A program made the translations under genes and the position numbers. From contig CAWFOM010000010.1 in the NCBI GenBank assembly GCA_963817385.1, positions 315,344 to 379,343 of the forward strand: a DNA stretch of 64,000 bases. Direction: 5' to 3'. Under the pieces are notes generated by a model, which worked only from the letters and a program-made list of their open reading frames with translations, searched no databases and had not been told where the DNA came from. Source of the DNA: an uncultured delta proteobacterium. GTDB taxonomy: Bacteria > Desulfobacterota > Syntrophia > Syntrophales > UBA5619. This document shows, one piece after another, positions 26,174 through 44,409 of this stretch; within the stretch, counting starts at the first letter, position 1, and the number at the start of each line of letters is the position of its first letter.

Positions 26174-26796
26174 TTTGCCACCTCTCCCTTTGAAAAACCG
26201 ATATCGAAGGCGCGGAGGTTGGCCTCGACACGGGAGGCCGGCATCCCCTCCCGGATCACGGCCTCAAAGACCTCCCGGTCGACGGGCAGCACCCCCAGGC
26301 CTGCGACGGCGCCGATCATGACGATGTTCCCGAGGATGGGATTCCCCAGGGCGACCGCCTCATCCGTCGCATCGAGGAAGCGGGCCGTATCCGAGAGCGC
26401 CGCCACGGCTTCCCGGATCTTCTCCGGCCCCGGATAATCGGCCTCTCCGGTGATCACCCCCACGGGGTAGATCGGCCGCATGTTCACCAGGACCTTCACG
26501 GCGGGGTTGCCGTAGTCGGCCAGCACCCGGATCGCCTCGATCGGCTCGATGGCGACGATCAGATGCGCCCTCCCCTTCGGGATCTGCGGGCTCCAGACCG
26601 CCGTCGACGAAACCCGGATGTGGCTCATGACCGAGCCGCCCCGCTGGGACATCCCGAACGTCTCGCCGATCGTCACCCTGAACCCCTTGCGGACCAGCAT
26701 GTTCGACAGGACCCGCGAGGCCATGACGTTTCCCTGGCCGCCCACCCCGGTTATGATGATATTGTAGGGATCTTTCATCACGGTCCGCTTCTTCAT
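26170..26796 (-). CDS. iorB: indolepyruvate:ferredoxin oxidoreductase beta subunit
   Basis: 208 aa. [30 protein letters not shown] overlaps with iorA upstream and fprA downstream. Confidence 0.85.
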
Positions 26797-28740
26797 GCGC
26801 TCGCCGCCTCCTCGCTCCGGATCGCCTCGGCCGGACAGATCCCCGCGCAGACGCCGCAGCCGGCACAGATCACCTCATCGATCCGCGCCTTCCCCTTTTC
26901 CCGGTCCCACAGGAGTCCCGGACAGCGGAAGATCCGCGTGCAGAGGCGGTTGCAGCCGCAGGCATCACCCCGGCAGAGGAGTTCATCCACGCGCATCTGG
27001 TAGCGCTTCCGTCCTTTTTTTTCGGGTGACAGGGCGCAGGACTGCTTCAGGATCAGGACCTTCACGCCTCCTCCCCCCTCCATGAGATCGTTGAGCGTCT
27101 CCCGCGTCTCCTTAAGGGCGAACGGATCGCCGATGACGACCTTCGCCCCTATGGAGGCGCAGAGGGCCGCGATATCGACCTTGGGGGAGGCATCCCCCAT
27201 GGCGTTGACATCGATGCCGGGATGGGACTGGAATCCCGTCATCGCCGTGCCGCTGTTGTCCAGGGCGATGAAGATGATATTCGCATCCTGATGGACGGCG
27301 TTGATGAGCGCAGGAATCGCCGCATGGTAGAAGGTCGAATCCCCACAGACGGCAATGATCGGCTGGTCCATCCCGAACGCCCCCAGCTTGCCGAATCCGG
27401 AGGCCACGCCCGTCCCCGACCCCATTGCATGAAGGGTCTTGGCGGTATGAAACCCGGCGGCAGGAAAGAGGCATGCCATCGCATAGCAGCCGATGTCCCC
27501 GCAGACGAACCCGCCGCGGCCGTCGCGCTGCAGCGCCTCGCGGATGCTCCAGTAGGAGGCGCGGTGGGGACAGCCGGGGCAGAAGGTCTGCTCGCGCCGG
27601 GGCGCCAGAGCGGCCAATGCCCGGAGCTTCTCTCCGTAGGCCGCCGGAAGCGACTTTGGTTCCATCCCCAGAATCAGGCCGACGGCCCGAGCAACCAGGT
27701 CGGGATTCAGCTCGCCCGCCATCGGCAGGGTCCCGTCGTTCTTCCCGTAAAAGGTCTTGCTGCCGATCGCCCGCACCTGCTCGGCGGCCAGAATCTTGAC
27801 CTGCTCCTCGAGAAACGGGAGCACCTCCTCGACGATCAGGATCTTCTCCGCCGCCGCCAGATATCGCTTCAGAAGCTTGGGCGGTATGGGCCAGGTCGTG
27901 CCGAGCTTGAGAATGCCCACCCGGTCTTCGGCTTCGATTAGTGACAGGGCCTCGCGGCTGTAGAGCATGCAGGCGCTGCTTGTGATGATCAGGAGCTCCG
28001 GCCGCTCAGGACCCGAATAGGAGTTAAAGGGGCTCTCTTCGAAGATCTCCGCCGCTTTCCTGATCTTCTCCTGCTGGAGTCGGTGTTTCTCGACGACCGG
28101 GAAGCTGATCATCGGCCCCCGCTCGGGATCGGAAACCGCGGCCGTCGCAGCAAAATTCCGCCTTTCCCACTATGGAGGGAAGTTCACCGAGGACGACGTT
28201 TCCGCTTGCATGCGACATGCGGGTCACGCTCCGGAGCATGACGATCGTCCTAAGCTCCTCCGAGAGGGTGAAGGCCCAGCGGGTCATCTCCTTCGCCTCC
28301 TGGAAATCCGCGGGCTCGAGGAGCGGAATCTCCATGAGCCGCGCGAAATGACGGGACTCCCCTTCGTTGACGCTCGAGAGCGCTCCGGGATCGTCGCAGG
28401 TGACGAGGACCATCCCGCCCCGCGTTCCCGACCCGACCAGGTGGAGGAGAAAATCGGAGGCGACATTGACGCCGTTTTGCTTCATGACGCAGAGCGACCG
28501 AAGGCCGGCAAACGATGCCGCCGCCGCCACTTCCATGGCCACCTTTTCGTTGGTGGACCACTCCACATAGAGCTTTCCCGCCTCCGCGAACCGGGAAAGG
28601 GTTTCGATGATCTCCGAAGAAGGGGTGCCGGGATAGCCGGCGGCGACCCGGACCCCGGCCTCCAGGGCGCCGCGGGCGATGGCCTCGTTTCCCATGAGCA
28701 GGAGCTCGTCCCCCGCTTTCTGTTTCCTATCAATTGACAT
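26793..28740 (-). pseudogene. iorA: indolepyruvate:ferredoxin oxidoreductase alpha subunit, split by a 1-nt insertion in the A-run 28152-28155
   Basis: N-terminus GNEAIARGALEAGVRVAAGYPGTPSSEI. After ...GKAEF the next frame continues AATAAVSDPERGPMISFPVVEKH... It also carries the TPP-binding region and a C-terminal 2x[4Fe-4S] motif. Confidence 0.85.
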
Positions 28741-28773
28741 CCGCGCCTCCGCACCAGACTTGATCCCTGCACA

Positions 28774-29910
28774 TCATCCCACCTGCCCCATCGGATCGGT
28801 TGAACCCGCCCGCACAGCGGAAGAGCTTGCCGCCGCCCGCTTCTTGTTGAGCGAGGCCGCCTTGAGTTTCTCCCAATTACCCGCCGGAATATCCCGAAAC
28901 TCGAGAACTCCGCGGCGTCGGGCCAACTCCAGGATCTCACTGCCGCGCCTGGTCCTGACGATCACCTGGTTCCACCCGCGGGCCGTCTCCCATCCCTCCG
29001 GAAGGCGCGCTGATCCGACTGAGAGATCGCTGAATTCGGCCGTCATGTCGTCGCAGGAAAGGCAGGATTCCCGGACGCAGGGGTTAACCTCGTCGAGGGA
29101 AACCCGGACGGTCCCGTCCTTCGTGGACACTTCCAGGGTATGGTATCGGCTGGGGGGGATATCCATCCCGGTCACCCGGGCAAGATCGGTTTTTTGTTCC
29201 ACGAGTGTGACAAGGTCCCGCCAGGAAAGGGCCCAGCCGCAGAAGAGCCCCACAACCAGTTGGAGTTTTTCAATGCCGCTCGCGGGCGCCGTGACAGGCT
29301 GGGTGCGCATCTTGGCGAGGGCCAATGCCTGACAGGGGGTGGCGACGACGCCGATTCTCCGGTAATCGGAACGAACCGCCCGGTTGAATTCAGCAACGGT
29401 AGGAGAGACGACGAATCTGCTTTTCCCCGTCTTGCCTGCCGCTTCGGGGTCGCTGACCGTGATCGCCCGGGGGAGAAGCCCCTCTCCTTCCGCGGCAAGA
29501 ACGGCTGCATCGATCAATCCCTCCCGAAGGGCCAGGGCAATCAGGGCGGTGACTGTTCCGCCGTGCTGGGCCTGACGTCGGATCCCCTCATCCGTCGCCC
29601 GGGTGATAAAAAATCCTTCCACCGCCCCCAGTTCCGGCGTCCAATTCGCACCGGCATGGAGTTTCCGGTGCAGGGCTTCCCGGTCCACGGGCGTCCGCGG
29701 GCAGCAGGCATAACAGCGCCCCCGCGCAAGATCACAAAGATGGAGGGTGACTGTTCGGTCACGGTAGGAGGCCTGATAGGGGCAGAGGTTGACGCAGGCT
29801 CCGCAACCGGTGCAAAGACCGGCCCTGATGATCGACTCCTCCAGTTCCTTCTGCCCCCCCTGTCCGACTCCCGTATCCGCTGTATCCGTATCCCGCTCGT
29901 TCAACCGCAT
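28774..29910 (-). CDS. FrhB/FdhB-family (coenzyme F420 hydrogenase/dehydrogenase beta-like) iron-sulfur flavoprotein
   Basis: 378 aa. N-terminal CTGCGACVNLCP ferredoxin motif, HGGTVTALIALAL and GVVATPCQ blocks typical of the family. Confidence 0.65.
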   Translation of the reverse strand: MRLNERDTDTADTGVGQGGQKELEESIIRAGLCTGCGACVNLCPYQASYRDRTVTLHLCDLARGRCYACCPRTPVDREALHRKLHAGANWTPELGAVEGFFITRATDEGIRRQAQHGGTVTALIALALREGLIDAAVLAAEGEGLLPRAITVSDPEAAGKTGKSRFVVSPTVAEFNRAVRSDYRRIGVVATPCQALALAKMRTQPVTAPASGIEKLQLVVGLFCGWALSWRDLVTLVEQKTDLARVTGMDIPPSRYHTLEVSTKDGTVRVSLDEVNPCVRESCLSCDDMTAEFSDLSVGSARLPEGWETARGWNQVIVRTRRGSEILELARRRGVLEFRDIPAGNWEKLKAASLNKKRAAASSSAVRAGSTDPMGQVG

Positions 29911-30110: not shown

Positions 30111-30186
30111 TCCCCAGTAGCTCAGTCGGTAGAGCAGATGGCTGTTAACCATCGGGTCCGTGGTTCGAGTCCGCGCTGGGGAGCCA
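30111..30186 (+). tRNA. tRNA-Asn (anticodon GTT), CCA encoded
   Basis: The cloverleaf folds by hand. Acceptor TCCCCAG/CTGGGGA, D arm GCTC/GAGC, anticodon stem GATGG/CCATC with loop CTGTTAA, T arm CGTGG-TTCGAGT-CCGCG. Confidence 0.92.
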
Positions 30187-30745: not shown

Positions 30746-31720
30746 TCACGCCATTCCTATTTTGGCCATGCGCTTGTGTATCGTCTGCGCCTGCCCGATC
30801 ATCTCTGCGACGATATCCCGGACCGGCATGATTTTTTTGGGGATGCCTATCCCCTGTGAAATGGAAATGGTTCCCGCGTTCAAATCGCCGGTCTGGTACA
30901 TCTTCCTCGCCGCTTCGCCGGAAACATACGGGAGTATCTCCTCCAGCGAACCTCCCCTTTTTTCAATTTCAAGGGTCTTCCTGGCCGGCTCATTCATCCA
31001 TACGCGATGCGTGAAACCGACCGAGAACATGATCAGGTCGGTGCTGAGCTCGTTGGCTTCGCAAAGCGCTTGCTTCAGATGCGGATGCACAGGGCATTCG
31101 TCGGAAAGGACGAAGCGCGAACCGACAATAGCTGCTTCCGCCCCGAGCGAGAGGACGGCGTAGAGTCCTCGCCCGTCGGCAACGCCGCCGCCGCCGATGA
31201 CCGGAATCCGAACCGCGTCGACCGCCGACGGCACCAGCACCAACGTGGTGATGTTCAATATCCCCGTCGCCCCGCCATTTTCATATCCCACAACCGTTAC
31301 GGCGTCTGCGCCAAGCGAGGCCACTTTCCTGGCGTAACGCACCCCGACGCATTTGTGAATCCAGGTCATGCCGTATTCCTTGAAGAGCGCCACAAGATCT
31401 ACCGGCGCCTGATGGCCGGATGTCTCGACTATTCTTACTCCCTCGGCGGAGAGTACATCGAGAAACACCCGATTATCGGGCGGCATCAGTTGGGGAAAGA
31501 GATTAATATTTACGGCGAATGGTTTATCGGTCAATTCCCTCGTTTTTCTAATTTCCAGACGAAGTTTCTCCGGGTCCTTGAAGATTGCCGAGGCGATAAT
31601 GCCGAGCGCGCCGGCATTGGAAATTGCGGCCACGAAGGGGGCCAGCGTAATGTCCATCATGGTCCCGCCGATAATCGGATATTGAATCCCCAGCAACTCG
31701 GTTATCCTGGTCTTGAACAT
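30746..31720 (-). CDS. NAD(P)H-dependent flavin oxidoreductase (nitronate monooxygenase / FabK-like)
   Basis: FKTRITELLGIQYPIIGGTMM, GALGIIAS, IPVIGGGGVADGRG. Start taken at ATG 31720, after AGGAGAG. Confidence 0.8.
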   Translation of the reverse strand: MFKTRITELLGIQYPIIGGTMMDITLAPFVAAISNAGALGIIASAIFKDPEKLRLEIRKTRELTDKPFAVNINLFPQLMPPDNRVFLDVLSAEGVRIVETSGHQAPVDLVALFKEYGMTWIHKCVGVRYARKVASLGADAVTVVGYENGGATGILNITTLVLVPSAVDAVRIPVIGGGGVADGRGLYAVLSLGAEAAIVGSRFVLSDECPVHPHLKQALCEANELSTDLIMFSVGFTHRVWMNEPARKTLEIEKRGGSLEEILPYVSGEAARKMYQTGDLNAGTISISQGIGIPKKIMPVRDIVAEMIGQAQTIHKRMAKIGMA

Positions 31721-32050
31721 GGCCTCTCCTATCAATCAAGGTTCTGATCTTCCTTATATACAACCACCGTCGAGATGCTTTTTGAAGCACCGTCGATGAA
31801 GGTATATCCTGAGATCTCGTGAATAATGGAATTCTTTAACAACAATATGCTTTTAAGCGACGTGAGTATAGGGAGATGCATTTTGTGTGTCAAGATAATA
31901 AAACCACCGGCGCCGTTTCGACGAGCCTGAGTACGCAAATCATTACCTCTGACGAAAATGCTTGATTTCATGCCGTTATCAGTAATAATGTTATCGTTAA
32001 GATAATTATGATTCGGCCGCATCAAAATGAAAACAGGAGGAAAACCCACG

Positions 32051-32484: not shown

Positions 32485-33738
32485 ATGACAGAGGTAGTAA
32501 TCGTATCAGCCTGCCGGACCGCGATCGGCGCCTTCGGCGGATCGCTTCGCGACGTGAACTGCGCCCAGCTCGGCAGTGTCGTGATGAAGGAGGCCGTCAG
32601 AAGGGCCGGGATTGACGCCGCCCTTATCGATGACGTCCGTTTCGGCTGCTGCATGGAGCCGGCGGACGCCCTCAACGTCACCCGCATCGCCGCCCTCATG
32701 GCGGGTATCCCGGATACCGTCACGGCAGTAACCGTAAATCGGGTCTGCATCTCCGGAATGGAGGCCGTCGTCTCCGGCATGGCAATGATCCAGGCCGGCA
32801 TGGCGGAGATCATCCTCGCCGGCGGCATGGAGCACATGTCGGGGGTTGCCTATTCGGTTCCCGCCGCCCGCTGGGGCTGCCGCTTCCAGGACCAGATCTT
32901 CGTTGATGACATCATCCACGGCCTCCATGCGGGCTCGCACCTTCTGCCCGGTCTGGAGAAGGGACCGGTCAAGGAGGGGGGCGTCGTTGAGCTCTTCCGG
33001 GGAAAACCGTATATCATGGGGGTCACTGCCGAGTTGATCGCCCAGATGTACGACCTCTCGCGGGAGGAGATCGACGCGGTTGCGCTCCGCAGCCACAATA
33101 ACGCCGAGCGGGCCACCCGCGAAGGCGACTTCAAGGATGAGATCGTCCCTGTGGAGATCCCCCAGAAAAAAGGGAAACCGCCCGTCATCTTCGACAAAGA
33201 CGAACACTTCCGGCCGGGGATCACGATGGCCGATCTCGCCTCGCTGCCGGCCGCCTTCATCCCGAAGACCGGCAAGGTCACGGCCGGGAACTCCTCCGGC
33301 GTCAACGACGGGGCGAGCGCCATGGTCATCATGTCGGCAGCAATGGCGAAGGAATTGGGGATTATTCCCCTCGCCCGGATCAAAGCGGTGGGCCGCGGCG
33401 GCTGTCACCCCTCCGTCATGGGGCTGAGCCCCGTCCCCGCCGTCCGGAATCTCCTGGCCAGGACGGGTCTCACCCTCTCCGATTTCGAACTGATCGAGGT
33501 CAACGAGGCGTTTGCCGCACAGTACCTGGGCTGCGAGCGTGAACTCGGACTGAACCGGGAGCTTGTCAACGTCAACGGTTCCGGCGTGGGTCTCGGCCAC
33601 CCGGTAGGCTCCACCGGATGCCGGATCATGGTCACTCTCCTCCATGCCATGAGGAAGCGGGGCAAAACCCTCGGGATGGCCACGCTCTGCGGCGGCGGCG
33701 GTGTTTCTCTCGCCACCGTCCTGGAGGCGTCGGCATAA
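32485..33738 (+). CDS. acetyl-CoA C-acyltransferase (thiolase)
   Basis: 417 aa. VIVSACRTAIGAFGGS, NRVCISGMEAV (active Cys), GNSSGVNDGASA, NGSGVGLGHP, CGGGG. Confidence 0.9.
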   Translation: MTEVVIVSACRTAIGAFGGSLRDVNCAQLGSVVMKEAVRRAGIDAALIDDVRFGCCMEPADALNVTRIAALMAGIPDTVTAVTVNRVCISGMEAVVSGMAMIQAGMAEIILAGGMEHMSGVAYSVPAARWGCRFQDQIFVDDIIHGLHAGSHLLPGLEKGPVKEGGVVELFRGKPYIMGVTAELIAQMYDLSREEIDAVALRSHNNAERATREGDFKDEIVPVEIPQKKGKPPVIFDKDEHFRPGITMADLASLPAAFIPKTGKVTAGNSSGVNDGASAMVIMSAAMAKELGIIPLARIKAVGRGGCHPSVMGLSPVPAVRNLLARTGLTLSDFELIEVNEAFAAQYLGCERELGLNRELVNVNGSGVGLGHPVGSTGCRIMVTLLHAMRKRGKTLGMATLCGGGGVSLATVLEASA

Positions 33739-33836
33739 ACCGCCCATCCATGCCCATCTTCCCGTCCCGGATCGAGGTTACATTTTCTTCTTGACATCCT
33801 CCTACTCTTTCGCTACGGTCGGCTATCCAGTCTTAC

Positions 33837-33845
33837 CGGTCTGAC
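33837..33845. promoter_or_regulatory. candidate GntR operator half-palindrome GGTCTGACC
   Basis: 9-nt palindrome (GGTC-T-GACC), preceded by the direct half-site GTCTTAC, just upstream of the GntR start. It resembles the GT-N-AC type of GntR sites. Confidence 0.25.
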
Positions 33846-33862
33846 CAATTTTGAGGGAACGG

Positions 33863-34627
33863 ATGACTTTTGAAAAGCTGACCCAAACCAAGTTCAAGAA
33901 GAAAAGTTCCTTTATCGCCGACCAAATCCTGCGGATGATCGACTCCGGGCGCTACAAGGCAGGAAGCAAACTCCCCTCTGAGCGCACCATCACCGAACAG
34001 ATGGGGGTGAGCCGCCCTTCCCTGCGGGAGGCGATCAGCGCCCTGCAGATCGTCGGCATCCTGGAAAGCCGCCCCGGCGACGGCACCTACGTCTCCAACC
34101 CCGCAGCCACCGAAGAGCTCATGCGGCGGGCTGTCGCCGTCCTCGAGGAATGCGACAGCCCCTTTGAAAATATGCAAGCCCGCAAGGCGTTGGAAATAGG
34201 CGCGGTCAGACTCGCCATCGCGGTCGCGACCGATGCCGACCTCAATGCCCTCAAGGCGGTGTCGGACGAAAAATGCCAGCGGGGACGCCGGGGGGATCTG
34301 GAGGAGTATCTCCGCTACGGGAAGGAATTCCACCTCGTCATCGCCCGCGCCACAAAAAACCGGACCATCGAGGCGATCATGGAGAAGCTCCTCGATATGA
34401 CCATCCAGCCCCTCTGGATCAACATGCGCCGGGACTATTTCCTCAAGGATCCTTCCCGGATCGAACTGATGATCGATATCCATGATCGGATCATGCGGGC
34501 GATCGTCGACCGCGATATGGACCGGGCAACCCGCGAATTGGAGATCCACTACGACATGCAGATCGAGCAGATCTACGGTCAGAGTGATGAAAATAATCAC
34601 GAGCAGCCTACCGGCATGCAGAAATAG
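33863..34627 (+). CDS. GntR/FadR-family transcriptional regulator (FCD domain)
   Basis: LPSERTITEQMGVSRPSLREAISALQIVGILESRPGDGTYV is a winged HTH. The C-terminal domain is helical. An alternative TTG start lies at 33851. Confidence 0.85.
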   Translation: MTFEKLTQTKFKKKSSFIADQILRMIDSGRYKAGSKLPSERTITEQMGVSRPSLREAISALQIVGILESRPGDGTYVSNPAATEELMRRAVAVLEECDSPFENMQARKALEIGAVRLAIAVATDADLNALKAVSDEKCQRGRRGDLEEYLRYGKEFHLVIARATKNRTIEAIMEKLLDMTIQPLWINMRRDYFLKDPSRIELMIDIHDRIMRAIVDRDMDRATRELEIHYDMQIEQIYGQSDENNHEQPTGMQK

Positions 34628-34771
34628 AATGCCGGACAAACCGTAAAGGGGGTGATGACGGCGATATTCGGTGGAAGAAGGAAGGGGTAGATTTCCCGAG
34701 GGTTCTTTTAACTGTCGGGTCGCCGTCGGGCATTTCCAATCGGCGAACCAGCCATGTCATGGAGGGTAAAA

Positions 34772-35766
34772 ATGAAGAATATTTATAAGTTGTCAGTTTT
34801 ACTGTTGGTCGTCTTATTCATTGCTGTCGGGGCGGGAAGCGCTCTGGGCGCCGGTAAATACCCGGAAAAACCCATCACCCTGATCGTCCATGCCTCCGCC
34901 GGCGGGGGAAGCGACATCTTTGCCCGCACCCTGTCCGCAGCGGTCGAAAAGGATAAACTCCTTCCCCAGCCGATCGTCGTCGAGAACAAGCCGGGCGGAA
35001 GCGGCGGCATCGCCTTCGCCTATGTGGCCGGCAAGAAGAAGGACCCCTATTTCCTCCTCACCGCGGTGACGAGCTTCATGACCACGCCGCTGATGGGGAT
35101 CACCCCGGTCGGCCTCAAGGACTTCACCCCGATCGCCAATTTCGCCTTCGACGAATATATGCTGATGGTCAACCCCAAATCGAAGTACAAATCGGTGAAG
35201 GAGATCATCGCCGACGCCAAGGCCAATCCGAAGAAAATCACCGTCGGCGGAACGCAGCTCGGCTCGTCCGACTCCATTTGCGCCTATCTGGTTGAAAAGG
35301 CGGCCGGCGTCCAGTTCAATTACGTCGTCTTCAACGGCGGCGGCGAGGTCAACGCGGCCCTCCTCGGCGGCCATATCGACATCGCGGTCAGCAACCCCGG
35401 AGAGGCGCTGGAACTCTCCAAGGCGGGCAAAGTCAAACTCCTGGGCGTCTATTCCGACAAACGGCTGCCCGGCGCCCCCGATGTCCCGACGATGAAGGAG
35501 CAGGGGGTCGACGTCACCTACGTCCAGAACCGCGGTCTCGTCGCCCCGGCCGACATCCCGGCGGACGCACGGAAGGTCCTGGAAGAGGCCTTCGCCAAAT
35601 ACATGAAGACGGACGTCTTCAAGAAATATCTCGCGGACAACATGCTCTCCGCGGCATGGATGGACGGCGATACCTTCGGCGAAATGGCTCGAGAAAGAAA
35701 ACGAAAGGTATGCCGTGATCATCAAAGACATGGGTTTGATCAAAAAGAAGAAGTAATACCTTAATT
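34772..35766 (+). pseudogene. tctC: tripartite tricarboxylate transporter substrate-binding protein (TctC/Bug family), C-terminus shifted by a 1-nt insertion at 35691-35694
   Basis: Signal peptide, then YPEKPITLIVHASAGGGSDIFAR. After ...DGDTFGE the next frame gives WLEKENERYAVIIKDMGLIKKKK-stop, a family-typical tail. Confidence 0.85.
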
Positions 35767-35782
35767 ATCGATACAGGCAACG

Positions 35783-35815
35783 GGCGGGGGCGCAGCTTCT
35801 GCGCCCCCGCTTTTA
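35783..35815 (+). terminator. strong GC hairpin with T tract between tctC and tctB
   Basis: GCGGGGGCGCA (35783-35793), loop GCTTC, TGCGCCCCCGC (35799-35809), TTTTAT. Confidence 0.6.
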
Positions 35816-35844
35816 TCAGGCGGAATGAAGAGGCGAGGCGGCTG

Positions 35845-36306
35845 ATGAAAAAAGCGGATTTGATTACGGGTGTTGTTCTTTTGGTGCTCTCCGGCTATGT
35901 GATCCGGGAGGCCTGGCAGATGCCCCCATCGGCGACGTTCGGTCCGGGTTCGGGGTTTCTCCCCTTCTGGCTCGGGGTGATCCTGGCGGTTCTGGCGGTG
36001 ATCCTGCTGGCAACCACCTGGCGCCGCCGGGCGACTGAGAAGGACGGCATCTCCCCGTTCCCGGGCAAGAAGGCGCTCATCGCGATCGGTTCGGTTCTGG
36101 GTGGGCTTGCGGCCTACATCATCCTGATCGAGGTGCTGGGATTTCTCCTGGACACGTTCCTGTACGTGGCGTTTCTGCTGGGGGTGGTGGAGCGGGAACG
36201 TTGGCTCATGACGCTCCTGGTTGCGGTGTCGACGACGGCGGGGCTTTATCTCATCTTTCAGGTTCTCCTGGGGATTACATTGCCCTCGAACATGTTCGGA
36301 TTCTAG
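35845..36306 (+). CDS. tctB: tripartite tricarboxylate transporter small membrane subunit TctB
   Basis: 153 aa with four TM helices. Lies between tctC and tctA. Confidence 0.8.
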   Translation: MKKADLITGVVLLVLSGYVIREAWQMPPSATFGPGSGFLPFWLGVILAVLAVILLATTWRRRATEKDGISPFPGKKALIAIGSVLGGLAAYIILIEVLGFLLDTFLYVAFLLGVVERERWLMTLLVAVSTTAGLYLIFQVLLGITLPSNMFGF

Positions 36307-36326
36307 TCTGAGGCGGAGGTAGTATC

Positions 36327-37835
36327 GTGGATATATTTAATAATCTTATTCTGGGATTTCAGGTCGCTTCCTCCTGGGAGAATCTCCTCTTCTGCTTTAT
36401 CGGGACGCTCATCGGGACGCTCATCGGGGTTCTGCCGGGGATCGGCCCGACGACGGGGGTGGCGATTCTGATCCCGATCACGTTCGGGATGAATGCGACG
36501 ACGGCGATCATCACGATGTGCGGGGTCTATTACGGGGCGATGTACGGGGGATCGACGACGTCGATCCTCCTGAACGTGCCGGGGGAGTCCTCCTCGGTGA
36601 TGACGACGCTGGACGGCTACCAGATGGCCAAGAACGGCCGGCCGGGTCCGGCCCTGGGGATGGCGGCCCTCGCGTCGTTCATCGCGGGGACCTTTGCGGT
36701 CCTGATGCTGACCTTCATCGCGCCCATGCTGGCCAATTATGCGGTTTCATTCGGGCCGCCGGAGTATTTCACCCTGACCTTCATGGGCCTCACGATGGTG
36801 ACCTCACTGGGGGGCGACTCGCCGCTCAAGGGGATCATCAGCGGGGTTTTGGGGTTGATCGTCGCCTGCGTCGGGATCGACGCGATCAGCGGCGTCGCCC
36901 GGTTCACCTTCGACAGCATGTACCTCCTCGACGGCGTCGGGTTCATCGGGATGGCGGTGGGGCTCTTTGCCGCCTCGGAGGTCCTGGTGAACATCGAGGC
37001 GCCGATGCAGCAGATCTTCACGGAGGCGAAGCTGAACTTCCTGAGCCTCTTTCCGAACCTCCAGGACTGGAAGGATTCATTCGGGGCGATCTGGCGAGGA
37101 TCGATCATCGGCTTTTTCGTGGGGGTCCTCCCCGGGGCGGGGGCAACGATCGCCTCGTTCATGGCCTACGCGGTCGAAAAGAGGATGAGCAAGCACCCGG
37201 AGAAGTTCGGGACTGGGGTCATCGAGGGGGTGGCGGCGCCGGAGGGGGCGAACAACTCGGCGGCGGGCGGCGCGATGGTGCCGCTCCTGACACTGGGGAT
37301 CCCCGGATCGGGGACGACGGCGGTCATGCTGGGGGCGCTGATGATTCACGGGCTCAGACCCGGGCCGCTCCTCTTTTCGACGCATCCCGACTTCGTCTGG
37401 GGGCTGATCGCCAGCATGTACATCGGCAACGTCATGCTTATCATCCAGAACATGCCGATGATCGGCCTGTGGGTGCGGCTGCTGAAGGTCCCCTACTCGG
37501 TCCTGATGCCGCTGATCATCACGATCTCGGCGGTCGGCGTCTTCGCGACGGACAACAACGTCTTCGACATGTGGGTGATGTTTGTCTTCGGCGTAATCGG
37601 CTATGTGATGCGGAAGCTCGATTATCCGCCGGCGCCGATGGTCCTGGCCTTGGTCCTGGGGCCGATGGTGGAGATGTCGCTGCGCCAGTCGCTCACCATC
37701 TCGCACGGGAGCATGGCGATCTTCTTCACCCGCCCCATCTCGGGTACGCTGGCGATCTTCGCTCTCCTCTCCCTCTTCGCCCCCCTCTTCCGGATCCTCT
37801 GGATCAGGTACAAGGCGGGAAGGGCGGCGGCGTAG
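36327..37835 (+). CDS. tctA: tripartite tricarboxylate transporter large permease TctA
   Basis: 502 aa, GTG start. GTLIGVLPGIGP, YGGSTTSILLNVPGE, PGAGATIASFMAY. Confidence 0.9.
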   Translation: MDIFNNLILGFQVASSWENLLFCFIGTLIGTLIGVLPGIGPTTGVAILIPITFGMNATTAIITMCGVYYGAMYGGSTTSILLNVPGESSSVMTTLDGYQMAKNGRPGPALGMAALASFIAGTFAVLMLTFIAPMLANYAVSFGPPEYFTLTFMGLTMVTSLGGDSPLKGIISGVLGLIVACVGIDAISGVARFTFDSMYLLDGVGFIGMAVGLFAASEVLVNIEAPMQQIFTEAKLNFLSLFPNLQDWKDSFGAIWRGSIIGFFVGVLPGAGATIASFMAYAVEKRMSKHPEKFGTGVIEGVAAPEGANNSAAGGAMVPLLTLGIPGSGTTAVMLGALMIHGLRPGPLLFSTHPDFVWGLIASMYIGNVMLIIQNMPMIGLWVRLLKVPYSVLMPLIITISAVGVFATDNNVFDMWVMFVFGVIGYVMRKLDYPPAPMVLALVLGPMVEMSLRQSLTISHGSMAIFFTRPISGTLAIFALLSLFAPLFRILWIRYKAGRAAA

Positions 37836-37881
37836 ACAACAAGCCGGATGGCGAGAGCGTTTTTTAGATTATGCCCCATAA

Positions 37882-38439
37882 ATGATCGATGAGGAGTTGT
37901 TGATGAAAGTAATCGGAGTTCATATGGAGCGCTGCACGGGTTGCAAGACCTGTGAGCTGTACTGCGGAGCGGAGCGGGGGAGCGAGGGAAAGACGCTGCT
38001 TGCGGCGGTCCGGGAGACCCCGGCGCCCCAGCCGCGGGTGCGGGTCGAGGGGGGGCGGGACGCCTGTTTTCCCCTGCAGTGCCGCCACTGCCTGCAGGCG
38101 CCGTGCCTCGACGCCTGCCTCACCGGGGCGCTGATCCGTGATCCCGCAAGCGGGATGGTGATCATCCGGGAGGATCTCTGTATCGGGTGCTGGACCTGTA
38201 CGGCCTTCTGCCCCTACGGGGTGATCAGCCCCTCCCCGGAGCGGAAGATCGCGATCAAGTGCGACCGGTGCCTGTACATGGAGAAGCCGGTCTGCGTCGA
38301 CGTCTGTCCGACGAAGGCGCTGGAGGTGGTCGAGATCGAGGCTCTCGAAGAGCTGCTCCGGGAGAAGCGGCGCAAAACCGCGCACGGGATGGCGGCGGCC
38401 GGGGGCGTTGGGTTGAGCCTTCTGGACCTGGGAAGATAA
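37882..38439 (+). CDS. CooF/HycB-like multi-[4Fe-4S] ferredoxin
   Basis: 185 aa. CTGCKTCELYC, CRHCLQAPCLDAC, CIGCWTCTAFCP, CDRC...CVDVCP. Confidence 0.75.
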   Translation: MIDEELLMKVIGVHMERCTGCKTCELYCGAERGSEGKTLLAAVRETPAPQPRVRVEGGRDACFPLQCRHCLQAPCLDACLTGALIRDPASGMVIIREDLCIGCWTCTAFCPYGVISPSPERKIAIKCDRCLYMEKPVCVDVCPTKALEVVEIEALEELLREKRRKTAHGMAAAGGVGLSLLDLGR

Positions 38440-38483
38440 ACGAGCATACATAAAATCGAATAGTCGGGGAGTTAAAGAAGCTT

Positions 38484-39936
38484 ATGGAAACAATTCATTT
38501 CAAGACGGTGGACCCGGTGAGCCAGGATCTGCTCCGCGGGGCGTCTCAGAAGGGGCTTTCTCTCAACTGGGAGAGGTATGAAAAACAGCAGCCGCAGGAC
38601 GGTTTTCTGCGCCTGGGGCTCTCGTGCCCGTACGGGTGCATGCAGGGACCCTGCCGGATCGATCCGTACGGACGGGGAGCGGACCGGGGGATCTGCGGGC
38701 TGGACCGGGACGCGATGGCCGCGGCGTTCCTGCTTCGCCTGACCCTCCAGGGGGTGCTGGAGACGATGCACGCCTATCCGGCGGGTGACGCGGGGAGATC
38801 GCCTGGCCGGCGCCGCTCGACAAACCGGCTGCGGCGGCCCTGGCGGCAGCCGGCGGGGGGCCTCGTCTCCACCGGGGAGATAGCGGCGAGCGCGGTCATG
38901 CTGGCGCGACCTTCGGCGACCCCGGAGGAGCTGGTCCGTCAGGCCGTCCGGCTGGGTCTTCTCGGGATCGGCATCGCGGAAGCGGGCAGGAAATCGGGAC
39001 AATCCTCCGGGTCCCGGGGATGCCGGGTCGGTTACGGCCTCCTCGCCGGAGAGGCGATCACGATCGGCCTGGCCGGGCGGGTTCCGGCGGCGCAGGTTGA
39101 GGCGCTCCTGAAGGCCGGCGGGAAGAAGCCGGACGTGCGGCTGGTATCGCTCGGGGAGTGGCTCCCCGCCGGGGAGGGGTTTCTTCCCATCGTCTGCACG
39201 TCGGGCGAGGCGGAGACCGTCCTGAGCTCGGGGAAGATTAACCTCCTTCTGGTGGGTCCCCAGTGCGATCCGGGCATCCCGGCCCTCTGCGCACGGATGA
39301 AGGTGCCGGTTCTCATGAGCTCCGACAACCCCGCTGCGGCGGCGGTTCTCAAGCAGGCCCGGGCGGCGTTCGAAGGCCGGGGTCCCTCCTCCTTCTCCCC
39401 CGATGCAGCCCTGATCGGGGAAGGACGCGTGAGCATCGGCGAGCGCGAGATCCAGGCGGCCCTGAAGGACGGCCCTTCGGCGAAGATCGCCCTGATCGGC
39501 GGCGCGGACACCCTCCTGCAGTCTCTCGGCCACCTTCCCGTGGAGCTGGCCAAGGCGCTCCGCGGCGAGGCGCTTGCGGTCGCCTCCTGGGGCGATGCCG
39601 CCCTCTGGATGCTCAAAGCAGGAGCTTCCCGTCGGGATCCTGGAGGCGGAGGAAGGGCCGATGACCGCGGTCAGGACACTGGCGAAGGCCGGAAAGCTTT
39701 CGGCAATCAAGGGGATCTGCTTCACGGGTCTCAGGGACTGCCGGGAGTTCACGCGGGCCCTGGGGCTCGCCGCACTCGGGCTGAAGGTTTCTCTCGCCGT
39801 GCCCGTTCCCCTCTGGGGGAGCGAGAAGGTCCGCACGGCGCTTCGGGAGAGCCTGGCGGCCGCGGGCGGGATCCTGGCCCATTTTGACCACCCGGCCCAG
39901 GGGGAAGAGCTCCTGGAGTGGTTCCTCCGGGCGTGA
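38484..39936 (+). pseudogene. short CooS (Ni-CO dehydrogenase)/hybrid-cluster-family protein, split by a 1-nt insertion near 39621
   Basis: The N-terminus ERYEKQQPQDGFLRLGLSCPYGCMQGPCRIDPYG...GICGLD aligns with the CooS N-terminal Fe-S motif. After ...ALWMLKA the next frame continues ELPVGILEAEEGPMTAVRTLAKAGKL...IKGICFTG... to 39936. The repaired product is about 480 aa. Confidence 0.6.
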
Positions 39937-39959
39937 TGGAAAGGATGAGGAGCATCTCC

Positions 39960-41211
39960 ATGCAATGTATCATCGTTGGCGGCGGCGTCGCCGGTTTTCA
40001 GGCCGCCGCGACCTGCCGGGCGATATGGCCCGAGCGGGCCGTGACCCTGATCGACGCCGAGAGTGAATGCGGATATTACCGGACGCTCCTGCCCCAGTTC
40101 ATGGTGGGGGCGCTCCCGGAAGAGAAGCTCTTCTTCCGGCGGGAGGGGAATGACCCGCTCCTGAAAGTACGAACCGGCGTCCGGGTGAAGAAGCTGGATC
40201 GCAGCGGCTCCCGGCTCATTTTGGCCGATGGGGAGGAGATCCCCTACGACCGCCTGATCCTCGCCCACGGCGGGGATCCGTACCTGCCCGGCATCCTCGC
40301 CGGTCCGCCCGCGAAGGGGATCTTTCCCGTCCGCGACCTGACGACGGCGCGGGCGGCGAAGGCGTGGCTTGCCGATCACCGGCAGGTGATCGTCTTCGGC
40401 GGCTCGCTCGTCGGGGTAAAGACGGCGGTTCATCTGCGGCAGGCGGGGTTCGACGTCTCGCTTATCGTCAGGCGGGGCCATATTCTCCTGCGCGCCCTCT
40501 CTCCGGAAGCGGCTCAGGTCGTCGAGGCGCATCTCGAAGGATTTGGGGGTTCGCCTGGTTGTCGATGCGCCCCTGGAGGATATCCGCATCGAGCAGGGGG
40601 CGATCGCGGCCCTCAAGGCGGGGGGTCAGTGGATCGCCTGCGACACCCTGCTCGTGGCGGCCGGAACCGCGCCCGACACGGCGTTTCTGGAGGGGACGGG
40701 CCTTCTGACGGAGGGTGAGCTCGTCGTCTCCCCGGCGCTGCAGACGGCCGATCCGCGGATCTTCGCCGCGGGCGATGTGGCCGTGATAGCCGGCGCGGCC
40801 GGGGAGAAGATCAGCCCGAACACCTGGCCGCAGGCCGTCTCGCAGGGGAGGACGGCGGCGGAGAATCTCTACCGGAAGACGCCCCTGCCCCATCGCGACC
40901 GGACACGGATCAATGCGATGGAGCTCCATGGTCTGGCCATGGTCATCCTCGGCCCCCCGGTTGACGGGGCGGAGGTGATCTCGTATGCGAGACCCGAGGA
41001 GCGTGTCCGGCGCGAGCTCTTCCTCAGGGGAGGAAAGCCGGTGGGAGGCGCGCTGATCGGCGACATCTCGGCCGCCGGAACGCTCCGCGCCCTGATCAAT
41101 GCCGGGCGGGAGATCACCCCCGGGGACGCCGCGCTCCTCAAGCCCCTGACGAGGAGCGTCATCCGTTTTCCCGAACACGCGGGCCGCAGGCAGGCCCTGA
41201 TTCTTTCCTAA
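39960..41211 (+). pseudogene. FAD-dependent pyridine nucleotide-disulfide oxidoreductase (FNOR-type), split by a 1-nt insertion at 40539-40542
   Basis: IIVGGGVAGFQAA and VIVFGGSLVGVKTA are two Rossmann GxGxxG motifs. AHLEG then the next frame gives LGVRLVVDAPLEDI...FAAGDVA. Confidence 0.8.
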
Positions 41212-41226
41212 CATGAGGTTACGTCT

Positions 41227-41952
41227 ATGATGATTCTTGAAGAGAAATGTGTGGGCTGCGGCCGTTGCCAGCCCTACTGTCCCACCGCCGCGATCAGATA
41301 TGACGGGCTGAAAAGCGCAATCGACCAGGATGTCTGCTATGAATGCAGCACCTGCCTGCGCGCCGCGCACTGCCCGGTCGACGCCATCGCGGAATCGCCC
41401 AATGTGTACGACTACCCCCGGGCGCTGCGCCGCTATTTCAGCGATCCCAGTGCGACGCACGCGGCCACCGGCATCCAGGGCCGCGGAACCGAGGAGTCCA
41501 AGACGAACGATGTCACCCTCCGCGTCGGTCCCGGCGAGGTCGGCGTCGCCATCGAGATCGGCCGGCCCACACTCGGGATGTCGATTCTGGACATCCAGAA
41601 GATCTCCCGGGCGATCGCCCGCGCCGGCGTCCACAAGATCGAGGCGCACAACCCGATCCACTCCATGATCGCCGACGAGGCGACGGGGGATCTCAAGCCG
41701 GAGATGCTCGGGGAACGGGTGCTCTCGGCGATCATCGAGATCAAGGTGAAGCGGGATCAGCTCCGCGGCATCCTCCGGACACTCAAGGAGGTCGCCAAGG
41801 AGGTGGACAGCGTCTTCTGCATCGACGCCTGCACCATCGTCGAGCCGGGGCTCACGATCCCGGAGGAGGTCCTGGAGAGCATCCGGGCGGAGGGGTTAAC
41901 CTGGCGGCCGAACGCCAAGATCAACATGGGCCTCGGACGGGCCTGGGAATAA
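41227..41952 (+). CDS. ferredoxin-domain protein with uncharacterised C-terminal domain
   Basis: 241 aa. CVGCGRCQPYCP and CYECSTCLRAAHCP at the N-terminus. I do not recognise the remaining ~170 aa. Confidence 0.55.
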   Translation: MMILEEKCVGCGRCQPYCPTAAIRYDGLKSAIDQDVCYECSTCLRAAHCPVDAIAESPNVYDYPRALRRYFSDPSATHAATGIQGRGTEESKTNDVTLRVGPGEVGVAIEIGRPTLGMSILDIQKISRAIARAGVHKIEAHNPIHSMIADEATGDLKPEMLGERVLSAIIEIKVKRDQLRGILRTLKEVAKEVDSVFCIDACTIVEPGLTIPEEVLESIRAEGLTWRPNAKINMGLGRAWE

Positions 41953-41962
41953 GGATACAATC

Positions 41963-42614
41963 ATGACTCACAGTTTGCACAGGGAAGGCAGCCGGGAATC
42001 GCTGGAGAAGGACTATGTCCTGTTCATCTACCCGGCGAGGGGATTCAACTACAAGGGGAGCGCCCCGAAGGTTCGTCATATGGTCGAGCTGCTCTATCAG
42101 GCCGGTCCGGTCAACATGATCCCGACGTCACTTGCGCCGCAACATGTACAGCGGGGTGACGAACGAGGAGATCCTCGACAGCATTACCGTCGAGGGGACG
42201 CGCGTCTACTCCGTCTTCAACGACCGGGAGAAGCTCAAGAAGGCGGTGATCTTGCTCAAGGAGGCGAACGAGGGGATCTCCGTCATGGTCAGCGGGCTCA
42301 CCGACCGCGTCCGGGAGCTCGCCGCGGAGTGCGGCATCACCCCCCACATGATCAACCTGTCGCTCGGCATCCACGGGCGGACGGACCGCCTGCCGCCGGC
42401 GGACATCCGGGAGTTCACGACGATGTGCGGCCACGGCGTCGTCTCGCCCTACCTGGTCAAGGATATGATCCGCCGGGTCAAGACGGGCAAGGTCAGCGAA
42501 TGGGACGGAAGCGTGCTCCTCGCGGAGCCCTGCACGTGCGGCATCTACAACCCGTGCCGTTCGGCGGAACTGCTCCGGGAAAAATCGCCTCTCTACACGA
42601 TCGACCGCTTGTAG
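41963..42614 (+). pseudogene. hypothetical protein with C-terminal Cys/His cluster, split by a 1-nt insertion near 42131
   Basis: ...AGPVNMIPTS continues in the next frame as LRRNMYSGVTNEEILDS... The C-terminus MCGHGVVSPYLVKDMIRRVKTGKVS...PCTCGIYNPC is reminiscent of BFD-like [2Fe-2S] spacing. This is a weak resemblance. Confidence 0.45.
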
Positions 42615-42630
42615 CGGCGGGAGGATCCGG

Positions 42631-43520
42631 ATGAAGCTGGGATTTATCGGTTTCGGGGGCGCGGGCTACGGCCTGGCCAAAGGGCTCAAACAGGCGGGGC
42701 TCGAAGAGCTCCATTTCCACGACCGCATGCAGGAGACGCCGCCCTACGCGGAGGTGATCGAACGGCACGCCGCCGAGACGGGCGCAGTCCGGGCGTCTAA
42801 CCGTCCGTGAGCTTCTCGACCGCGTGGAGGTCGTGATCTCCTGCGTCACGGGTGCGATGGCGATCGAAGTGGCGCGTGAGGCGGCGCCCTTCCTCAGGGC
42901 CGGCCACCTCTACGCGGATGTCAATACCGCATCGCCGCACGTCAAGGAGACCGTTGCCGGGATCGTCGAGACGGCAGGGGGGCTCTTTGCCGACGCGGCG
43001 ATGATGGGGGCGATTCCGGCCTTCCTCCACCGGGTGCCGATCCTCGCCTCGGGATCCGGAGCCGCGCGCTTCCTGGAATTGATGCAGCCGTACGGGATGA
43101 ACATCCGGGTGATCGGCGAGAAGCCAGGCCAGGCCTCCGCCATCAAGATGTTCCGCAGCATCTTCATGAAGGGTCTCCTCTCACTTTTTCTCGAGATGCT
43201 GACCGCGACACACCGCTACGGCGTCGATGAGATGGTCCTTGCGTCCATCGCCGAGTCGCTGGACGGGACGCCCTTCCGGGAGACCGCGCGGCGTGCAGAT
43301 GACCAAGGGGACCGTCAACGCAGAGCGGATGGCCCACGAGATGGAGGAGGTGATCGCCACACTGGAGGAACTCGGCGTCCCTGCGGAGATGTCCCGGGCT
43401 TCCCGGGAAAAGCTCCTTTGGTGCGCTGGCTTCGGTCTGCGCGAGCGCTTCGGCGGCGAGCTGCCGTCCACCCTCGCGGAGGTCCTCGGGGAGCTCGAAC
43501 GAACACCGGCTAACAAATAA
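42631..43520 (+). pseudogene. NAD(P)-binding dehydrogenase (6-PGDH NAD-binding fold with DUF1932-like C-terminus), two 1-nt insertions (~42799, ~43292)
   Basis: MKLGFIGFGGAGYGLAKGL Rossmann start. ...GAVRAS then the next frame gives TVRELLDRVEVVISCVTG... ...FRETAR then the next frame gives VQMTKGTVNAERMAHEMEEV... to 43520. Confidence 0.7.
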
Positions 43521-43667
43521 GGTCCGCATGAGACAGGCCATGCCAGCCCGGCCTTTTTCCAAAATCATTGGTGAGTTAACAGGAGTCTTGCAAAACACCC
43601 TGTTTGCAGGCTGTTCAAACATGGTTCAGATGCAAGGCGCGCAAAAACCGAAGAGTGAGGTGTATAT

Positions 43668-44409
43668 ATGCAGGTTGATGCGCTCACGATCATGGTTCTC
43701 GCCATCCTTTTCGTCTCGACGCTGGTCCGCGCCGTCTTCGGTTTCGGAAACGCCCTGATTGCTATGCCGCTCCTGGCCATGACCTCGATCGGCATGAAAA
43801 CGGCATCGCCGCTTGTCGCCCTGATCGCAACTCTCCTGTCGCTCATGATTCTCTGGAAGGACTGGCGGATTATCGATTTCAAGTGCACCTGGAGGCTTCT
43901 GGCCGCCACCCTGCCGGGGACCCCCCTCGGACTCCTCCTCCTCAAGGGTCCTTATGAAAACACGGGCAAGATCATCCTCGCCCTCATCATCATCGGGTTT
44001 TCCCTTTACAGCCTATTCAGACCGCGGCTCATTGCGCTCACGCGCGAATGGACCGCATATCCCTTCGGCTTTCTCGCCGGCATCCTGGGCGGCGCCTACA
44101 ACTCCAACGGCCCTCCCATCGTGATCTACGGAACCATCCGCAGATGGCCGCCGGACTGCTTCCGGGCGAACCTCCAGGGCTACTTTTTCCCGGCAAATCT
44201 CATCATCATCACGGGGCATGGTCTGGGCGGTCTCTGGACACCAGCGGTCGGATGGTATTTTCTCCTCGCACTGCCGGCGATCCTGCTTGTCCATGTGGGT
44301 CGGAAACCGCCTCAACCGCATAATCCCCCCGGGACATTTCGAGCGATATATCCACATCCTCCTGATCCTGATCGGCGCTTTGCTCCTCATCCAGACAATT
44401 ACGGCCTGA
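43668..44409 (+). pseudogene. TauE/SafE-family anion exporter, C-terminus shifted by a 1-nt insertion near 44292
   Basis: Multi-TM protein with FGFGNALIAMPLL and GILGGAYNSNGPP. ...ALPAILLV then the next frame gives MWVGNRLNRIIPPGHFERYIHILLILIGALLLIQTITA-stop. Confidence 0.75.

Follow-up and report, generated by a model that had tools for sequence, protein, structure and literature searches.

The gene cluster at 33.85-44.41 kb of a 64,000-nt stretch of DNA from an uncultured delta proteobacterium of the Syntrophales (contig CAWFOM010000010.1; the whole analysed stretch is called the window) probably runs an undescribed redox step on an imported organic acid, and not the metabolism of carbon monoxide (CO), as judged from its sequence. 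It joins a GntR/FCD regulator and a TctCBA-type uptake system to five core proteins, namely a CooF-like polyferredoxin, a short protein resembling the CO dehydrogenase (CODH) CooS, an FAD-dependent NAD(P)H oxidoreductase (FNOR) and two poorly characterized proteins designated Fer4X and unk216. The best reading, whose chances are about even, is that of an NAD(P)-linked Fe-S oxidoreductase acting on an imported hydroxy- or oxo-carboxylate, and the region can be considered with moderate confidence as one GntR-headed operon for organic-acid uptake and redox conversion. An initial annotation, made from the letters alone, had described 11 co-oriented genes at 33851-44409; all are present on the plus strand at these positions, in an order running from GntR/FCD to TauE, as displayed below from Pfam matches and open reading frame (ORF) translations.

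33863-34627 (ORF from 33851), plus strand: GntR + FCD regulator of the FadR subfamily (Pfam GntR, FCD)
34772-35756, plus strand: TctC periplasmic binding protein (Pfam TctC, E=2e-41), with a +1 frameshift at 35680
35845-36306, plus strand: TctB small membrane subunit (Pfam TctB, E=5.5e-25, full profile)
36327-37835, plus strand: TctA large membrane subunit (Pfam TctA, E=5e-174, full profile)
37903-38439, plus strand: CooF/HydN-type polyferredoxin (Pfam Fer4_11, E=4e-18)
38484-39933, plus strand: short CooS-like protein (hhalign against CooS), with a +1 frameshift at 39615 and a -4/+1 pair at 38787/38855
39960-41211, plus strand: FNOR (Pyr_redox_2 and a rubredoxin-reductase-type C-terminal domain), with a +1 frameshift at 40536
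41227-41952, plus strand: Fer4X, a 2x[4Fe-4S] protein (Fer4 Pfam matches) with a C-terminal domain of no described family, intact
41963-42611, plus strand: unk216, a 216-aa Cys/His protein without Pfam or NCBIfam match, with a +1 frameshift at 42134
42631-43517, plus strand: beta-hydroxyacid-dehydrogenase-like NAD(P) oxidoreductase (NAD_binding_2 + DUF1932), with +1 frameshifts at 42800 and 43292
43668-44409, plus strand: TauE/SafE-family anion exporter (Pfam TauE, E=1.4e-23), with a +1 frameshift at 44285

Intergenic gaps are 10-67 nt from TctB through the dehydrogenase, and wider between GntR and TctC (144 nt) and ahead of TauE (150 nt). Downstream of TauE, mtgA lies on the minus strand, convergent with the cluster.

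Conservation of the core genes and of the Fer4X-unk216 pair

In a genome scan limited to one genome per species, CooS-like homologues of 40-70% identity turned up at 47 loci and were mostly full-length. The carriers belong to Syntrophales, Syntrophaceae, Smithellaceae, Desulfobulbaceae, Desulfocapsaceae, Desulfobacteraceae, other Thermodesulfobacteriota, Rhodospirillales and Acetobacteraceae; all those found are metagenome-assembled genomes (MAGs) or metagenomic contigs, with no cultured host among them. Wherever CooF, CooS-like, FNOR, Fer4X and unk216 are all present (33 loci, from MAGs of Syntrophales, Desulfobulbales, Desulfobacterales and Rhodospirillales), they follow each other in the same order on one strand within 6.5 kb or less (33/33), an arrangement far beyond chance. 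TctC/TctA and GntR genes accompany them in most loci, usually upstream, and in the alphaproteobacterial loci TctC(B)A and GntR are found on the opposite strand or downstream. The grouping noticed in the initial annotation is consequently not a peculiarity of one genome, since the five core genes are co-located in ~45 species-level genomes, usually with TctCBA and GntR.

Identities to the proteins of a metagenomic contig, L001 (ENA ERZ27297473, 92.5 kb), have medians over the 33 loci of 70% for Fer4X, 69% for unk216, 68% for CooF, 50% for FNOR and 48.5% for the CooS-like protein. Many loci carry one or two extra paralogous Fer4X-unk216 pairs (35-46% identity). L023 (13700-16600) and L026 (11900-14700) contain two such pairs, then an unpaired unk216 that is 60-63% identical to the main type, then an HpcH aldolase gene. 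Other neighbours recur, notably a xylose-isomerase-like TIM barrel (15 loci), MmgE/PrpD (9), a DHDPS-family aldolase (7), PdxA (7), DUF362 (5), aconitase (5) and HpcH aldolase (3).

A remote metagenome scan based on a five-sequence alignment of remote unk216 members gave 80 loci. Fer4X stands directly upstream of unk216 in nearly all of them, and a CooS-like gene occurs in just 3-5; CooF, CooS-like and FNOR appear only in those of the window's own subfamily. Among the 51 remote loci of at least 4 kb, 27 carry a transporter of the tripartite tricarboxylate transporter (TTT, 18 loci), tripartite ATP-independent periplasmic (TRAP, 6) or major facilitator superfamily (MFS, 4) type. The enzymes encoded nearby are LarA-type nickel-dependent 2-hydroxyacid racemases/epimerases (13 loci), D-2-hydroxyacid dehydrogenases, GlcD/GlcD/GlcF-like oxidases, short-chain dehydrogenases/reductases, PdxA and TIM-barrel isomerases, and HpcH and DHDPS aldolases, MmgE/PrpD and aconitase are likewise found beside Fer4X-unk216. 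These contexts identify Fer4X-unk216 as an autonomous unit tied to carboxylate uptake and hydroxy-/oxo-acid metabolism, and the CooF/CooS-like/FNOR trio is an add-on of one of its branches. The initial annotation had tied the transporter to the CooS/CooF/FNOR module: this linkage stands, with the qualification that the tightest tie is that of the pair of genes starting at 41227 and 41963, which in remote loci mostly occurs without a CooS-like gene. Two further operon types were encountered with the pair, one (L109, L139 and L158) with genes for an HpcH aldolase, a 112-aa ORF, an aldehyde:ferredoxin oxidoreductase, Fer4X and unk216, the other (L090, L091, L093 and L095) with an IMPase-family gene, an OadA-like carboxylase gene, Fer4X and unk216. 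L090 and L091 additionally have Tct genes upstream, encoded on the other strand.

Both members of the pair escape current family descriptions. In Fer4X, the Pfam matches are of Fer4 type only and cover residues 2-54, and the C-terminal alpha/beta domain comprises ~170 aa; the eight ferredoxin cysteines and the motifs SDP and GRGTEExKxND are kept across paralogues. The names borne by its homologues are generic or transferred ('4Fe-4S binding protein', 'Fe-S-cluster-containing hydrogenase component 2', 'PreA subunit'), and its PDB sequence search matched the ferredoxin domain alone. The C-terminal domain appears PII/ACT-like in the AlphaFold2 (AF2) model, without significant fold match. For unk216, every listed homologue bearing a name is 'hypothetical'. 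Its AF2 model, with a predicted local distance difference test (pLDDT) score of 83.5, combines an alpha/beta ferredoxin-like domain with a subsequent helical part that bears the Cys/His loops; no PDB fold matched it below E=0.02, and the PDB sequence search was empty. Fold searches with the two AF2 models yielded generic ferredoxin-like/PII matches only (E>0.003), and neither the Fer4X C-terminal domain nor unk216 matches a family in Pfam, NCBIfam, PDB sequences or PDB folds. An exhaustive profile search extends the unk216 superfamily to 622 clusters at 50% identity, nearly all stand-alone proteins of ~205-220 aa that start at profile position 1. Invariant or nearly invariant positions are the N-terminus M-[TS]-H-x-L-H-R-x-G, D17, H128, C155-G-H157, C190-x-C192 and N196. 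In one metagenomic protein of 411 aa (P0390, from a 7-member cluster), an unk216-family domain is naturally fused to a CooF-like Fer4_11 polyferredoxin. Mutual homology of Fer4X and unk216 was considered and rejected (hhalign probability 6%).

A CooS descendant and its proposed electron-transfer partners

The reconstructed CooS-like protein has 483 aa and its homologues 479-494 aa; the latter come from Syntrophus, Syntrophales and 'Deltaproteobacteria' MAGs and are mostly named hypothetical. The window's own truncated product (P0008) derives from a 443-kb contig. Family models barely recognize it: Pfam Prismane (PF03063) matches at residues 50-94 only (24.7 bits for a cut-off of 27), TIGR01702 of NCBIfam scores 55 bits for a cut-off of 478, and similarity to CODH in HMMER searches is confined to the first ~90 residues (PDB 6elq, E=1e-25). 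In contrast to these scores, the hhalign comparison with 22 genuine CooS references, drawn from loci L052-L080, extends over the full length with a probability of 100% and 26% identity, so that the protein is a true but highly derived descendant of CooS.

The fate of the metal ligands was followed in two independent alignments, one by hhalign and one, of 55 family members, by MAFFT, positions being given in CODH-II numbering. The B-cluster cysteines C48, C52, C57 and C71 are retained in 55/55 members and align with those of CooS. The D-cluster is not: C39 is replaced by Asp in 55/55 and C47 by Ser in 47/55. In the C-cluster, H261 is replaced by Arg or Gln, C476 by Asp in 55/55 members and C333 by Thr in most, although the window protein keeps a Cys there; the C446 column holds no cysteine, with Gly according to hhalign and Ala, Ser or Thr according to MAFFT. 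C295 and C526 are possibly retained as C241 and C415 according to hhalign, at places where MAFFT has gaps. The regions surrounding the acid-base residues K563 and H93 are absent in the profile-profile alignment. With the D-cluster and at least three of the six C-cluster ligands lost, the CooS-like protein is no canonical [Ni-4Fe-4S] CODH, and a canonical [Ni-4Fe-4S] cluster is excluded on these sequence grounds. This fits the idea put forward in the initial annotation of a different redox step acting on an imported carboxylate.

The CooF-like protein matches PF13247 (Fer4_11) with 65.8 bits for a cut-off of 26.2, and the four CxxCxxC...C motifs in its translation suggest that it probably holds four [4Fe-4S] clusters; among NCBIfam models it resembles the YgfT N-terminus, HydN, DmsB and PadI. 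Its gene is directly 5' of the CooS-like gene wherever the contig reaches far enough upstream. FNOR has the Pyr_redox_2 fold with its two dinucleotide-binding motifs; PF07992 is split over two ORFs in the window (profile positions 1-195 and 197-291) and complete in the intact 416-aa orthologue of L001. Its best NCBIfam resemblance is PadH (1.4e-44, 152.7 bits for a cut-off of 475), and the sequence LIVRRG after the second dinucleotide fold, without acidic residue, hints at NADPH by rule of thumb.

The gene order invites comparison with Ni-CODH clusters, in which CooS, CooF and FNOR couple CO oxidation to NAD(P)+ reduction, as in Geobacter sulfurreducens (PMC4703632; reviews PMC8776680, PMC6344411). 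The order CooF, CooS-type and FNOR is the same and the N-terminal helical B-cluster domain is homologous; however, the CooS-like protein has 484 aa compared with 600-800 aa for CooS, its D-cluster Cys39 and its C-cluster ligands H261, C446, C476 and mostly C333 are replaced, and Fer4X-unk216 invariably comes after its gene, to which TctCBA and GntR are usually linked. CODH surveys have filtered by length or motif, dropping sequences <550 aa (PMC6344411), or <400 aa or without motifs (PMC8776680), which explains why the CooS-like family has stayed undescribed. The nearest described relative is the mini-CooS of Thermosinus carboxydivorans, a protein of 482 aa encoded beside cooF that reportedly retains the 11 Cys and one His serving clusters B, C and D (Techtmann 2012, PMC3328121), assigned to clade G (PMC8776680), and whose gene exceeds the surrounding genome in G+C (PMC3328121). 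The resemblance, compared by published description, concerns length (482 versus 483-484 aa), the cooF neighbour and the raised G+C, whereas all ligands are reported in mini-CooS and the window family has lost part of them. In the window, G+C is 67-68% at 38000-42000 compared with ~59% overall, which, together with the two-phylum distribution, is compatible with horizontal spread. In the literature on mini-CooS and CODH-like proteins, no description of the cluster or of the two uncharacterized families was found.

Regulation, uptake and integrity of the operon

The regulator has the GntR + FCD architecture of the FadR subfamily, with an N-terminal winged helix (PF00392, 72 bits, E=3e-20) and a C-terminal FCD domain (PF07729, 78.9 bits, E=6e-22). 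It most likely starts at ATG 33863, in agreement with its orthologues, and is 90% identical to that of L001. Its best NCBIfam resemblances, all sub-cut-off, are LldR, NanR, ExuR, PdhR and GlcC, which are sensors of hydroxy-, oxo- or sugar acids. Two candidate signals precede it.

33791-33819, plus strand: possible sigma-70-type promoter, with TTGACA at 33791-33796, a 17-nt spacer and TACGGT at 33814-33819
33834-33850, plus strand: putative GntR/FadR-type operator TACCGGTCTGACCAATT, a 17-mer with the core inverted repeat GGT-N3-ACC

The possible promoter was read by eye; its -10 hexamer is weak and it did not pass the consensus scan, which for promoters and terminators gave a signal no higher than in shuffled sequence. 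The putative operator, which we take to resemble PdhR/LldR boxes, occurs once in the window, 12 nt ahead of the GntR start codon and just 3' of the possible promoter. It is found again, 25-32 nt ahead of the GntR start, in 11/13 Syntrophales-type loci, including one whose GntR protein is just 69% identical, and L029 has a variant site; no GGT-N3-ACC site was seen before TctC or CooF in the related-locus comparison. A conserved putative operator upstream of GntR alone fits an autoregulated GntR-headed transcription unit.

The transporter belongs to the TTT family, with the three profiles over their cut-offs (PF03401 142.7 bits, PF07331 88.6 bits and PF01970 579 bits), and TctA is 94% identical to that of L001. 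The same three Pfam families make up the Salmonella citrate TctCBA system and include the Bug proteins; in contrast to Salmonella TctCBA, the operon's binding protein is closest to uncharacterized UPF0065/Bug structures, which are its nearest solved relatives. The TctC frameshift at 35680 touches the last ~25 codons. The dehydrogenase, found in ~14 related loci, has an intact 295-aa orthologue in L001 with NAD_binding_2 and DUF1932; it scores 20-32 bits with the NCBIfam models of HIBADH, L-threonate dehydrogenase and tartronate-semialdehyde reductase (cut-offs 290-400), and its PDB relatives are uncharacterized. TauE belongs to its family (PF01925, 84.3 bits for a cut-off of 32.6) and is present in 6 loci, all Syntrophales-like close relatives. 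Both genes are accessory and lineage-specific.

The frameshifts announced in the initial annotation are real in the sequence. L001, with ~89% DNA identity to the window over 13 kb, carries intact copies of all these genes in identical order. Compared with it, six genes of the window are interrupted by seven +1 insertions (35680, 39615, 40536, 42134, 42800, 43292 and 44285), together with one compensated -4/+1 pair (38787/38855) within the CooS-like gene. No insertion falls within a long homopolymer, and the frames are free of stop codons after correction. The shifted genes have 77-97% protein identity to L001, comparable with the intact genes. The window-wide check relied on Pfam matches to split ORFs, the frame-plot of G+C at third codon positions being too noisy outside the cluster. 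It found the frame of mutS (20967-24000, minus strand) broken near 21,400, MutS_V profile positions 1-108 and 113-188 lying on two overlapping ORFs; read from stop to stop, mutS continues into a small gene upstream that encodes a Phage_holin_4_2 domain. At 24973-28773 (minus strand), a flavodiiron-like ORF (ODP + flavodoxin), whose ODP match begins at profile position 67, neighbours pieces of a 2-oxoacid:ferredoxin oxidoreductase (POR, TPP_enzyme_C and truncated POR_N); frameshifts have probably split these genes too.

Eight or nine frame disruptions within ~9 kb, and a disrupted mutS that could mean a true mutator background, raise the question of whether the cluster is a decaying pseudogene array with real frameshifts in this genome. 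This is improbable: the uncompensated shifts are all single-base insertions, no nonsense codons remain in the corrected frames, the shifted genes match the L001 proteins as well as the intact ones do at ~89% DNA identity, the disruptions also strike housekeeping genes elsewhere in the window, and the 443-kb source contig fits a long-read assembly. Since the 89%-identical L001 is intact and mutS is split elsewhere, the frameshifts look like errors and not decay, and are most likely assembly or sequencing errors; the operon is therefore probably functional in the organism.

Upstream of the regulator, one neighbouring gene has no demonstrated membership in the cluster.

32485-33738, plus strand: thiolase (Pfam Thiolase_N, Thiolase_C)

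The initial annotation had proposed that genes upstream might belong to the same pathway. This part fared less well. The thiolase adjoins the cluster only in L001, L014, L019 and L020, that is in close Syntrophales relatives, to which mtgA synteny is likewise limited; for both, the synteny is lineage-level only. The upstream NMO gene, the small 'cupin' ORFs and an FrhB-like gene were rejected as members, having no counterpart in 48 related loci, and Pfam found no cupin in the small ORFs. The NMO-family gene (30746-31735, minus strand) and a tRNA-Asn(GTT) (30111-30186, plus strand) lie in a low-GC stretch at 30-32 kb (GC 0.51) that is not syntenic with related loci. The FrhB/FdhB-like protein encoded at 28774-29910 (minus strand), with F420 hydrogenase/dehydrogenase beta-subunit domains and a 4Fe-4S motif, is not conserved beside the cluster.

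Proposed route, alternatives and significance

According to the proposed mechanism, TctC would capture a periplasmic hydroxy- or oxo-di/tricarboxylate for import by TctBA, and the GntR/FCD regulator would bind GGT-N3-ACC before its own gene and be released when the acid or a derivative is present. Fer4X and unk216 would form the substrate-converting heterodimer. The metal site of unk216 would be built from the invariant three Cys and His, with a contribution of the N-terminal His/Arg motif, and would plausibly be a [4Fe-4S] cluster with one open iron, fed or drained by the two [4Fe-4S] clusters of Fer4X. Electrons would pass along NAD(P)(H), the FAD of FNOR, the four CooF clusters, the B-cluster of the CooS-like protein, Fer4X and unk216, the CO-inactive CooS-derived protein serving as relay or scaffold and perhaps bearing a remodelled second site. 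The direction could be an NAD(P)H-driven reduction, e.g. reductive dehydroxylation or C=C reduction, or else a low-potential oxidation feeding NAD(P)+, as in CODH and PadEFG through the same type of module.

Known systems provide partial models. In NADH-dependent phenylglyoxylate dehydrogenase (PadEFGHI), PadH and PadI constitute a flavoprotein-polyferredoxin pair linking a low-potential Fe-S enzyme to NAD, and they are the best resemblances of FNOR (PadH, 1.4e-44) and of the CooF-like protein (PadI, 6e-20); however, the operon scores far under the equivalog cut-offs and the catalytic PadEFG, of 2-oxoacid:ferredoxin oxidoreductase type, is absent. LutABC and GlcDEF share with the operon the theme of an LldR/GlcC-like GntR regulator, a carboxylate transporter and a multi-subunit Fe-S enzyme, and GlcDEF-like genes even adjoin remote Fer4X-unk216 pairs, but neither Fer4X nor unk216 is related in sequence or fold to the LutA/B/C or GlcD/E/F domains. 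Aconitase and IspG/IspH, with a three-Cys [4Fe-4S] cluster and a substrate-binding iron, recall unk216 with its exactly three invariant Cys plus one His and its own 2x[4Fe-4S] partner; this is an analogy only, as unk216 has no homology to either. A link to nickel-pincer (LarA-type) enzymology was considered and rejected: the LarA-superfamily papers make no mention of Fe-S, ferredoxin or TTT neighbours, and the new Ni-pincer family described in 2026, an aldo-keto reductase, is unrelated. Altogether, the operon is predicted to work like a CODH-CooF-FNOR or PadEFGHI-type NAD-linked Fe-S enzyme, and by ligands and scores it is not a CODH.

A genuine CODH-CooF-FNOR module, oxidizing CO and reducing NAD(P)+ beside a transporter by chance, would be the conventional explanation, since this gene order is a known CO-to-NAD(P)H context (PMC8776680), the 90 N-terminal residues strongly match CODH and some homologues are named 'carbon-monoxide dehydrogenase catalytic subunit' in the sources. 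It is rejected by the ligand mapping and retains next to no likelihood, given that 55/55 members have lost the D-cluster, the two acid-base residues and three or more of the six C-cluster ligands, that the scores fall far under the TIGR01702 and Pfam cut-offs, and that the linkage to TctCBA, Fer4X and unk216 is kept across two phyla. Membership of the CooS-like protein and hybrid cluster proteins in the same Pfam family also brings to mind a stress or detoxification system that has nothing to do with the transporter and handles reactive nitrogen or oxygen species in the manner of hybrid cluster proteins; links to oxidative-stress genes exist for some CODH paralogues. Against this very improbable alternative, the 127 related loci show no recurrent stress genes; what does recur around them is transporters, carboxylate regulators and enzymes of the hydroxy-acid or aldolase kind. 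A more serious, though still unlikely, alternative makes the CooS-derived protein the catalytic subunit, with a remodelled Cys/Asp/His cluster in the old C-cluster pocket acting on the imported acid or a small molecule, and Fer4X-unk216 as electron carriers or auxiliary subunits. Hybrid cluster proteins, its relatives in PF03063, show that the prismane fold can host non-CODH clusters, and nine Cys, Asp and His residues of the CooS-like family are highly conserved (see below). Yet the CooS-like protein is the least conserved of the core proteins, the C295 and C526 equivalents depend on the alignment method, and most remote Fer4X-unk216 loci lack a CooS-like gene while remaining beside transporters and hydroxy-acid enzymes.

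Several points weigh against assigning the reaction to an NAD(P)-linked oxidoreductase centred on Fer4X-unk216. The residues C241, C272, C415, C422, D345, D374, H469, D471 and H472 are 83-100% conserved among CooS-like homologues of 40-70% identity, on account of which this protein may still be catalytic. That the five proteins associate physically is deduced from synteny only, and L015 (2700-6300), the sole exception to the five-gene core, has CooF, CooS-like, Fer4X and unk216 without FNOR. For unk216, the metal content is a guess based on its three Cys and single His, and the AF2 model of Fer4X is poor (pLDDT 62). The neighbouring enzymes are so heterogeneous that no single substrate emerges, and a genuine mutS defect could in principle yield real frameshifts.

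With these points in mind, the presumed catalytic pair Fer4X-unk216 stands a substantial chance of being a new enzyme family. A more specific proposal is put forward tentatively: the pair would be an unrecognized family of Fe-S metalloenzymes with an active site made of the N-terminal Thr/Ser-His-x-Leu-His-Arg motif and a 3Cys/1His cluster, performing a new redox reaction on hydroxy-/oxo-carboxylates in anaerobes, e.g. a CoA-independent reductive dehydroxylation or a low-potential oxidation. One branch would have recruited a CODH descendant stripped of its Ni-Fe-S cluster, possibly with a new cluster, as part of its NAD(P) wire.

Such an assignment would define what a widespread and overlooked branch of the CODH/hybrid cluster protein superfamily does after loss of the CO-converting cluster, and would give a first functional handle on two unannotated families, the Fer4X C-terminal domain and unk216. 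The operon, with its binding protein, regulator, operator and enzyme, also represents a tractable case for finding the substrate of an orphan TTT transporter. The hosts concerned are syntrophic and sulfate-reducing bacteria, in which the turnover of organic acids drives methanogenic and sulfidogenic carbon flow.

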